This document shows positions 61,374 through 61,654 of a DNA stretch of 64,000 nt, one piece after another. The DNA comes from an uncultured Clostridium sp. Lineage in GTDB: Bacteria > Bacillota > Clostridia > TANB77 > CAG-508. Position numbers and translations under genes: made by a program. Each line of letters opens with the position of its first letter. Within the stretch, counting starts at the first letter, position 1. The stretch is taken from the NCBI GenBank assembly GCA_948470605.1, contig CAOKPI010000005.1, positions 8,170 to 72,169 on the forward strand. The letters run 5' to 3'. The notes below the pieces were generated by a model. The model worked only from the letters and a program-made list of their open reading frames with translations, was not told the DNA's origin and ran no database searches.

Positions 61374-61654
61374 GTCCTCGCAGATTGCCAAGAGGGACGA
61401 ACCTTTTTGGCAATAAATTATAATTATCTATAAATTTTTAATGATAAAAAATAAAATTACATTCCTTACTGGTCGGACCAATCATATAAAATAGTATTTT
61501 ATAATTCATAAATTGTAGAGCTAATCTATTTGGTCTGTATGAATTAGAGTCCTCCCAAACTGCGCGTCATGTATTTTATTTTTATCATTAAAATTTTAAT
61601 TAAAAACAGAAATATTGCCAAAAAGGTTCGTCCCTCTTGGCAATCTGCGAGGAC
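61374..61654. repeat. Perfect 41-bp inverted repeats (61374-61414 and 61614-61654) flanking a 199-bp AT-rich segment. MITE-like or invertible element.
   Basis: gtcctcgcagattgccaagagggacgaacctttttggcaat and its exact reverse complement. Each arm holds a family-A-like hairpin (ttgccaa-gagggacgaacc-tttttggcaa). Confidence 0.9.

Follow-up and report, generated by a model that had tools for sequence, protein, structure and literature searches.

A 281-bp palindrome between femAB and alr in an uncultured Clostridium is probably one copy of a hairpin-forming intergenic repeat

Results

A long perfect inverted repeat fills the femAB-alr junction

We analysed a 64,000-nt stretch of DNA from an uncultured Clostridium, which we call the window. 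Near its end, a gene for a FemAB-family peptidyltransferase is followed on the same strand by alr, encoding alanine racemase, and the space between the two genes is taken up by a palindrome with an overall length of 281 bp, within which the copied unit measures 261 bp. The locus comprises the following features:

60311-61369, plus strand: femAB-family peptidyltransferase gene (Pfam FemAB, 7.3e-71; ORF list)
61374-61383, plus strand: left outer stem GTCCTCGCAG; its first 8 nt are specific to the locus and are followed by AG
61384-61414, plus strand: left hairpin module H (ATTGCCAAGAGG GACGAA CCTTTTTGGCAAT), in terminator orientation behind femAB
61415-61430, plus strand: left spacer, non-palindromic, conserved among copies at unrelated loci (alignments)
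61431-61458, plus strand: left arm of an inner A/T-rich inverted repeat (25 nt, 88%), its pairs kept in four copies
61459-61572, plus strand: core of the interior, cargo A, with conserved blocks ACATTCCTTACTGGTCGGAC, TTCATAAATTGTAGAG.TAATCTATTTGGTCTGTATGAA and CCTCCCAAACTGCGCGTCATGTA and a variable centre (five-copy alignment)
61573-61598, plus strand: right arm of the inner A/T-rich inverted repeat, pairing with the left inner arm
61599-61613, plus strand: right spacer, non-palindromic, varying more between copies
61614-61644, minus strand: right hairpin module, identical to the left one but in inverted orientation; hairpin plus T-run, terminator-like on the minus strand (61644-61614)
61645-61654, plus strand: right outer stem CTGCGAGGAC, pairing with the left outer stem as the base of the hairpin; TTTT comes next (61655-61658)
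61665-62801, plus strand: alr (alanine racemase) with its Shine-Dalgarno sequence GAAGG at 61666-61670

An earlier note on this DNA had described perfect 41-bp inverted repeats at 61374-61414 and 61614-61654. The repeats are indeed exact and even one nucleotide longer, as 61374-61415 and 61613-61654 are reverse complements at 42 of 42 positions with 197 nt between them, and no comparable inverted match appeared in 100 dinucleotide-preserving shuffles of the window. Each 42-nt arm consists of the 10-nt outer stem GTCCTCGCAG, the 31-nt module and one further base. The second, imperfect layer of symmetry that the note had placed inside the repeats is present as well (61431-61455 pairs with 61574-61598, 25 nt, 88%), as is the 4-nt gap between the FemAB-family stop and the left repeat, the femAB ORF ending at 61369. 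The distance of 16 nt given from the right repeat to the alr start holds for the ATG at 61671, but GTG 61680 appears the likelier start because GAAGG lies 9 nt upstream, homologues are mostly 372-373 aa long (PF01168 plus PF00842, Ala_racemase_N/C) and there is a 373-aa gene call; the alr gene calls in two assemblies are 373 aa and 410 aa. The exact Alr product matches no record, and the FemAB product is present in three assemblies.

Folded as RNA, the whole palindrome is predicted to form a single hairpin of -119 kcal/mol (z = -12.7). Rfam gave nothing relevant on the element, on a second interior that we call cargo B or on three related loci, at either gathering or permissive thresholds. No small ORF within the element is conserved between copies, and searches of phage, plasmid and viral-contig sequences returned no match to it.

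The arms belong to a repeated hairpin module placed at gene ends

Searching for further copies of the repeat, as the earlier note had proposed, revealed that the arm module is multi-copy. Scanning one genome per species for ATTGCCAAGAGG-N4-9-CCTTTTTGGCAAT, we found the module ATTGCCAAGAGG-N6-CCTTTTTGGCAAT at 44 loci. About 15 MAGs, most of them mouse-derived and carrying the label uncultured Clostridium or Clostridia, contribute these loci, which together with the window hold 72 H-type hairpins of 31 nt. Among the 33 unpaired modules, 29 follow a stop codon on the same strand within 32 nt, 28 are directly followed by a T-run (at least four T in eight bases) and just five face a converging ORF. 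The usual dinucleotide before the module is AG, with AG or AA found there in 49 of 63 cases. Furthermore, the module stem holds G.T pairs, and G.U pairing arises in the terminator orientation only, so that good RNA pairing is expected only when the module is read from the outside to the inside of the element. Judged by its sequence, a lone module thus resembles the signature of an intrinsic terminator.

The arm family has another member in the window, a single H-like hairpin:

29977-30007, plus strand: CTTGCCAAGAAGGTGAATCTTTCTTGGCAAT followed by TTTTT, 5 nt behind the nrdD stop

Module H also resembles the family-A hairpin TGTGACAAGAGGGGCGCCCCTTTTTGTCACA of the earlier note, which we recovered in the window at 7378, 24572, 30804 and, on the minus strand, 30868. 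This hairpin stands behind genes at 7378 and 24572 and forms an inverted pair at 30789-30919.

Besides the single form, modules occur as inverted pairs 100-260 nt apart, with cargo A, cargo B or, in some cases, a short sequence as the interior. We counted 20 such inverted doublets; exact inverted pairs number 11 and bracket at least three kinds of interior. The module and its own reverse complement are imperfect direct repeats with ATTGCCAA and TTGGCAAT in common, a likeness that offers a possible slippage or gene-conversion route between single and doublet forms.

The complete unit recurs at unrelated loci

Three more unrelated loci carry the whole 261-bp unit, non-palindromic spacers included, with 88-92% identity, and it is also present at the orthologous junction of another MAG:

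L016: orthologous femAB-alr locus in MAG CAOKVW, 98% identity to the window unit
L049, 3457-3718: same MAG as L016, 92% identity to the window unit
L033, 1848-2113: MAG CAOJZE, 88% identity to the window unit
L041, 1570-1835: MAG CAOJZE, 90% identity to the window unit

The boundaries of the unit are (AG)ATTGCC...GGCAAT(CT). No target-site duplication was seen at four independent cargo-A copies and seven other doublets, with the proviso that a 2-bp AT duplication would hide inside the repeat. At L033 and L041 a palindrome of another family, TGTCCYCACTGGTTC...ATGGGGA, surrounds the unit, which occupies its exact centre, and the L049 unit is without outer symmetry. The outermost 8 bases of the window palindrome (GTCCTCGC/GCGAGGAC) adjoin the module at the femAB-alr locus only. 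Genes downstream of the four cargo-A copies are unrelated to each other.

Metagenome data give a similar picture. In contigs of four mouse-gut metagenomes the arms and parts of the interior show an excess of depth, and different flanks branch off at 61382-61384, where the Logan contigs of other copies part from the window sequence, and at 61644-61646. Shorter, diverged variants of the interior are also present in metagenome contigs. When the metagenomes were scanned with the invariant 20-mer CCCAAACTGCGCGTCATGTA, a single chance match was obtained, in an unrelated high-GC coding sequence.

Across copies that are about 90% identical overall, three core blocks are near-invariant and the centre is variable. 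The blocks are kept better than a purely selfish spacer would need, and an RNA- or protein-binding function is therefore possible.

No mobilising gene was found beside the hairpins sampled

Hairpin pairs 0.3-3 kb apart enclose no transposase at any of the 44 loci; the genes between such distant pairs are ordinary ones (a Lon-like protease, purA, dnaB, two-component systems). Neither a Y1 transposase nor a RAYT was detected in the 64-kb window (Pfam) or between the hairpin pairs of the 44 loci. We also considered Rpn/YhgA-like (Transposase_31) genes as a hairpin-linked mobiliser and rejected them, as other loci show no linkage.

The window itself carries two Rpn/YhgA-like PD-(D/E)XK Transposase_31 ORFs, at 36587-37657 and at 47523-48185 / 48176-48790. 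The first follows closely downstream of a cargo-B copy. The second seems split, its downstream part containing seven 21-nt tandem repeats (48407-48595) that encode a K/E/Q-rich stretch.

The two arms of an element change together

The 6-nt loops are identical between the two arms in 14 of 18 non-orthologous doublets (permutation p<1e-5), and the loops of arms taken from different elements differ at a mean of 1.67 of 6 positions. Of the orthologous doublets, L044 has the loop AAA on both of its arms and L010 has GAA on both. Four compensatory pairs were found among four independent cargo-A copies. Matching is not instantaneous, as indicated by two uncompensated arm differences in L016.

Quasipalindromes are known to become longer and more perfect through template switching during replication (PMC7202029), and REPINs have been described as doublets with compensatory changes between their sides and asymmetric excision (PMC3116915). 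Selection acting on the long hairpin would explain the co-variation observed here, and so would the correction of quasipalindromes by template switching; the pattern of co-variation matches that reported for REPINs (PMC3116915).

The junction differs between close relatives

Several relatives have other arrangements between femAB and alr:

L006 (Alr 85%): femAB overlaps alr, without an insert
L001 (Alr 96%): an 88-nt spacer that contains a 75-nt palindrome belonging to the TGTCCCCACTGG family
L002 (Alr 88%): a palindrome of the same family as in L001, but larger

In yet another strain, the junction carries an insert of 236 nt that is unrelated. Because close relatives carry another palindrome, another insert or an overlap, the element appears to be an insertion into a formerly tight operon junction, and the site appears to be a hot spot for palindromic inserts. 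A parallel is offered by another orthologous site, where L029 has a single module with the flanks GAAG/CTTC, and L044 and L010 have module, cargo B and module between the same flanks.

In one cDNA contig, 61375 is connected to 61633 with a 4-nt microhomology (GTCC) at the joint, so that 22 nt remain of the right end. This joint reflects either the collapse of the DNA palindrome or a jump of reverse transcriptase over the hairpin in a read-through transcript.

The TGTCCCCACTGGTTCC...ATGGGGA palindrome family, found in the femAB-alr spacer of relatives (L001 750-824, L002 2545-2637), is also the one that hosts cargo-A units centrally in L033 and L041, and a diverged copy lies in the window at 26669-26742, behind hisS. 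Public assemblies break inside palindromes: L055 ends 43 nt past the femAB stop, and L003-L005 start within the palindrome.

One orientation in all informative assemblies

The earlier note had put forward the segment as a candidate invertible switch for alr. This is not supported, as we found a single orientation, no recombinase in 64 kb and a weak promoter. Orientation is alike in 8 of 8 informative assemblies or contig sets, which are consensus data that a minority inverted form would escape. The large-k assemblies of the locus (the window, L016, L053 and L054) all agree. For the L016-type strain, X42, X43, X49 and X56, from four studies, all show the reference orientation without strand-changing joints; here contigs of k=31 are informative because the arms differ at two positions. 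An 'opposite strands' joint in X14, connecting the left flank and arm to the reversed interior, was considered as evidence of inversion and rejected as uninformative, because a k of 31 cannot span perfect arms of 42 nt, and the set of 31-mers is the same whichever way the segment lies.

At 4 of 4 independent cargo-A sites the unit points the same way with respect to its upstream gene, an agreement with a chance probability of 1/8, and orthologous cargo-B units in three species have kept one orientation. As for the invertase or recombinase genes that the note had suggested looking for nearby, no tyrosine or serine recombinase is present among the about 55 ORFs of the 64-kb window (Pfam).

The promoter proposed within the segment, TTGTAG-17-TGTATGAAT, is weak: either register of the -10 box is without a critical base, and the site is absent from the list given by a consensus scan. 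That scan lists inward-facing TTGGCA-17/18-TAAAAT/TAAATT sites built from both arms. Between the element and the alr ribosome-binding site there is no space for a promoter. In relatives, too, nothing but a palindrome lies there, so that transcription of alr most likely still starts upstream and passes through the element.

Cargo B and other repeats of the window

Cargo B is the commonest interior between H pairs elsewhere and forms a covarying imperfect hairpin of about 130-150 nt. Two copies were identified in the window by nhmmer and blastn (nhmmer E-values 1.5e-27 and 1.2e-30):

22204-22344, plus strand: cargo-B copy without H arms
36166-36299, minus strand: second cargo-B copy

Loci with cargo B are L009, L010, L019, L022, L025, L029, L044, L046 and L050. 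Its stems covary (GCAAC/GTTGC, GTAAC/GTTAC, GTGAC/GTCAC; ACAGTCTGT/ACAGACTGT versus ACCGTCTGT/ACAGACGGT), and its C-rich internal loops CTCCCAAC and TTGGTCCCCCCGAA are conserved. In one sample cargo B reaches a depth of 87-311 against 3-8 for its flanks. That cargo B might be a small RNA expressed at a high level was not supported, as its level did not exceed that of the flanking genes in one clean metatranscriptome (X25).

A third element of like architecture lies at 27445-27682, where perfect 29-nt inverted repeats (TGGGACATGGGGACGTAGATAATGTCCCT) surround 180 nt. Its interior consists of an A/T-rich inner repeat and a core; a copy of the core (82%, inverted) is found at 45078-45175 and a copy of the arm at 34254-34280. 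Hairpin families of the GGGAC/GTCCC type occur at 17063-17201 and 20315-20427, with AAAATGATTTTGGGGACGGAGGAAAAAATCATGAT pairs behind the repeat-domain ORFs 15127-17064 and 17531-20278. An inverted pair of 51 nt and 90% (6317-6367 / 8649-8699) brackets spoIIIAA-AC. Also present are two identical tandem tRNA genes at 54417-54487 and 54515-54585, 98 nt from start to start, and an ORF for a PemK/MazF-type toxin at 56086-56619 (Pfam 1e-24), preceded by a 281-aa ORF without a Pfam match.

Discussion

Taken together, these results make it probable that in the 281-bp palindrome we see a single copy of a non-autonomous intergenic repeat that forms hairpins, with a REPIN/BIME-like architecture and a MITE-like size. 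The earlier note had offered, as its other suggestion, a MITE whose arms are built from a hairpin like that of family A. In kind this is essentially right, as the module that forms the arms is repeated, of terminator type and akin to family A, and the unit is multi-copy; the element is not a classical MITE, however, being without a target-site duplication, and a parent IS was not found at the 44 loci.

A sequence of events can be proposed for the locus. Starting from a tight femAB-alr operon junction as the ancestral state, a hairpin of the terminator type, its outer stem rich in GC (GTCCTCGCAG / CTGCGAGGAC + TTTT), would have arisen behind femAB and would then have become a doublet bearing cargo A. 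The doublet may have formed by hairpin-recognising single-strand transposition of a REPIN/IS200-like kind, or by template switching or gene conversion among H copies; conversion of a resident hairpin would account for the 8 locus-specific bases inside the perfect repeat. The arms may then have been kept identical through selection on the long hairpin, or through replication-slippage correction, that is, quasipalindrome template switching.

To its host the element is probably a passenger across which transcription continues, rather than a flip-flop promoter. REP/BIME elements in enteric operons attenuate read-through or stabilise the upstream message. By analogy, the most that the element may do between femAB and alr is to weaken read-through or to make the upstream mRNA more stable.

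More tentatively, a broader reading can be held as a whole, although we consider it possible rather than probable: that this gut Clostridia lineage has a REPIN-like system of terminator hairpins, in which the gene-end hairpins of about 31 nt serve as ends or landing pads; that the interchangeable structured cargo modules A, B and C spread without target-site duplication; that they do so by an unrecognised hairpin-specific enzyme or by template switching that copies hairpins; and that the arms stay identical by concerted evolution, femAB-alr being a hot spot with nested palindromes that differ by strain.

Three other explanations were weighed against a mobile repeat. An inverton, in which a site-specific recombinase from elsewhere in the genome would invert 61416-61612 at the 42-bp repeats and thereby switch alr on and off, appears very improbable, even though perfect repeats 197 bp apart and 16-25 nt from the start of the cell-wall gene alr have a fitting geometry. 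Other hairpin-flanked units would then be further targets of one enzyme, as with Mpi in Bacteroides, and inverton families sharing one common repeat sequence do exist. The X14 Logan contig that links the left flank and arm to the backward interior would speak for inversion, but its joint is uninformative with 42-nt arms at k = 31. Against an inverton stand the one orientation of the eight informative (consensus) assemblies, the single orientation of the cargo-B orthologues in three species, the shared polarity of the four cargo-A sites relative to their upstream genes, the 64-kb window without a recombinase, the failure of the proposed promoter in the consensus scan and the fact that the arms are mostly single, as gene-end hairpins. 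A palindrome of purely local origin, with the femAB terminator hairpin enlarged in place by template switching and without mobility, is likewise hard to credit. Such switching is known to make quasipalindromes longer and more perfect (PMC7202029), and the outer 8 bp of the repeat are locus-specific, yet the full 261-bp unit with its non-palindromic spacers recurs at three unrelated loci at 88-92%, and a second copy (L049) sits in the same MAG as the orthologue L016. Local enlargement could hold for the outer 10 bp only.

The third explanation, that the core is a functional structured RNA or a protein-binding cassette and its copies are paralogous genes rather than selfish repeats, strikes us as unlikely. 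The core might be, for example, a small RNA with a CCUCCC anti-Shine-Dalgarno motif, or a cis-acting leader, with the inward terminators insulating it. The three blocks that are near-invariant at about 90% overall identity around a variable centre, the conserved polarity relative to flanking genes, the promoter-like TTGGCA-17/18-TAAAAT/TAAATT sites facing inward from both arms and the cargo-B stems that covary around conserved C-rich internal loops would all be in keeping with function. Against these stand the lack of an Rfam family match, a level of cargo B not above that of the flanking genes in a true metatranscriptome (X25), one window copy of cargo B that is antisense to its neighbours, and the unrelated genes downstream of the four cargo-A copies; moreover, palindrome covariation is equally expected at the DNA level.

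For annotation, our analysis removes a false candidate phase-variation switch before an essential cell-wall gene. More generally, elements of the REP/REPIN type are much studied in Proteobacteria and hardly described in Clostridia. The family described here is of interest for its combination of a terminator-type hairpin with exchangeable structured interiors and for the concerted evolution of its arms, and it splits operon junctions differently in closely related strains. It thus offers a natural system for the spread of hairpin repeats, and their effect on operon expression, in uncultured gut bacteria. The breaks that assemblies of these genomes show at such sites are explained by these elements as well.

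Comparison with known systems

Invertons, such as those of Clostridioides difficile flgB/cwpV and the Bacteroides Mpi regulon, have in common with the present element that inverted repeats enclose 150-300 bp of DNA in front of a cell-envelope gene. The repeat geometry beside a gene is thus that of an inverton, but only one orientation is seen (consensus data), the 64-kb window encodes no dedicated recombinase and no convincing promoter was found. Moreover, the repeats are twice as long as those of invertons, perfect and self-folding, and they are mostly found as single gene-end hairpins.

The Correia elements of Neisseria (CREE/NEMIS), RUP, ERIC and bcr1 are likewise non-coding, about 100-300 bp long and bounded by terminal inverted repeats, with many intergenic copies. 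Correia elements and other MITEs insert between co-transcribed genes, are co-transcribed with them and can alter the expression of their neighbours, which we count as a further likeness. The element is, as in classical MITEs, a short non-coding multi-copy unit with terminal inverted repeats. However, Correia and RUP make TA target-site duplications and MITE repeats match those of a parent IS, and neither a duplication nor a parent IS was found here. Each terminal repeat of our element is, in addition, a complete hairpin.

REP, BIME and REPIN elements, which are mobilised by RAYT in Proteobacteria, are alike in being short imperfect palindromes repeated extragenically, often behind stop codons. 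As in REPINs, there are single and inverted-doublet forms, and a doublet with its spacer makes one long hairpin; target-site duplications are absent, the two sides show compensatory changes (PMC3116915) and deletion footprints are asymmetric, here in the cDNA joint 61375/61633. The family therefore has the marks of REP/REPIN elements, namely a repeated extragenic palindrome and long-hairpin doublets with compensatory change. It differs from them in its host, a low-GC spore-forming Clostridia lineage; in its long spacer (40-200 nt), a conserved and interchangeable cargo that is also found without hairpins; and in that no RAYT or other Y1 transposase lies beside the hairpins sampled here. In contrast to REPINs, furthermore, the module looks like a working intrinsic terminator, judging from its G.U polarity and U-run, and the lone module would qualify as one by position, orientation and T-run. 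In the literature searched we found no description of a MITE or REPIN of this kind in Clostridia or Firmicutes. Collectively, the architecture of the element is closest to that of REP/BIME/REPIN, and its size and genomic behaviour are closest to those of Correia-type MITEs.
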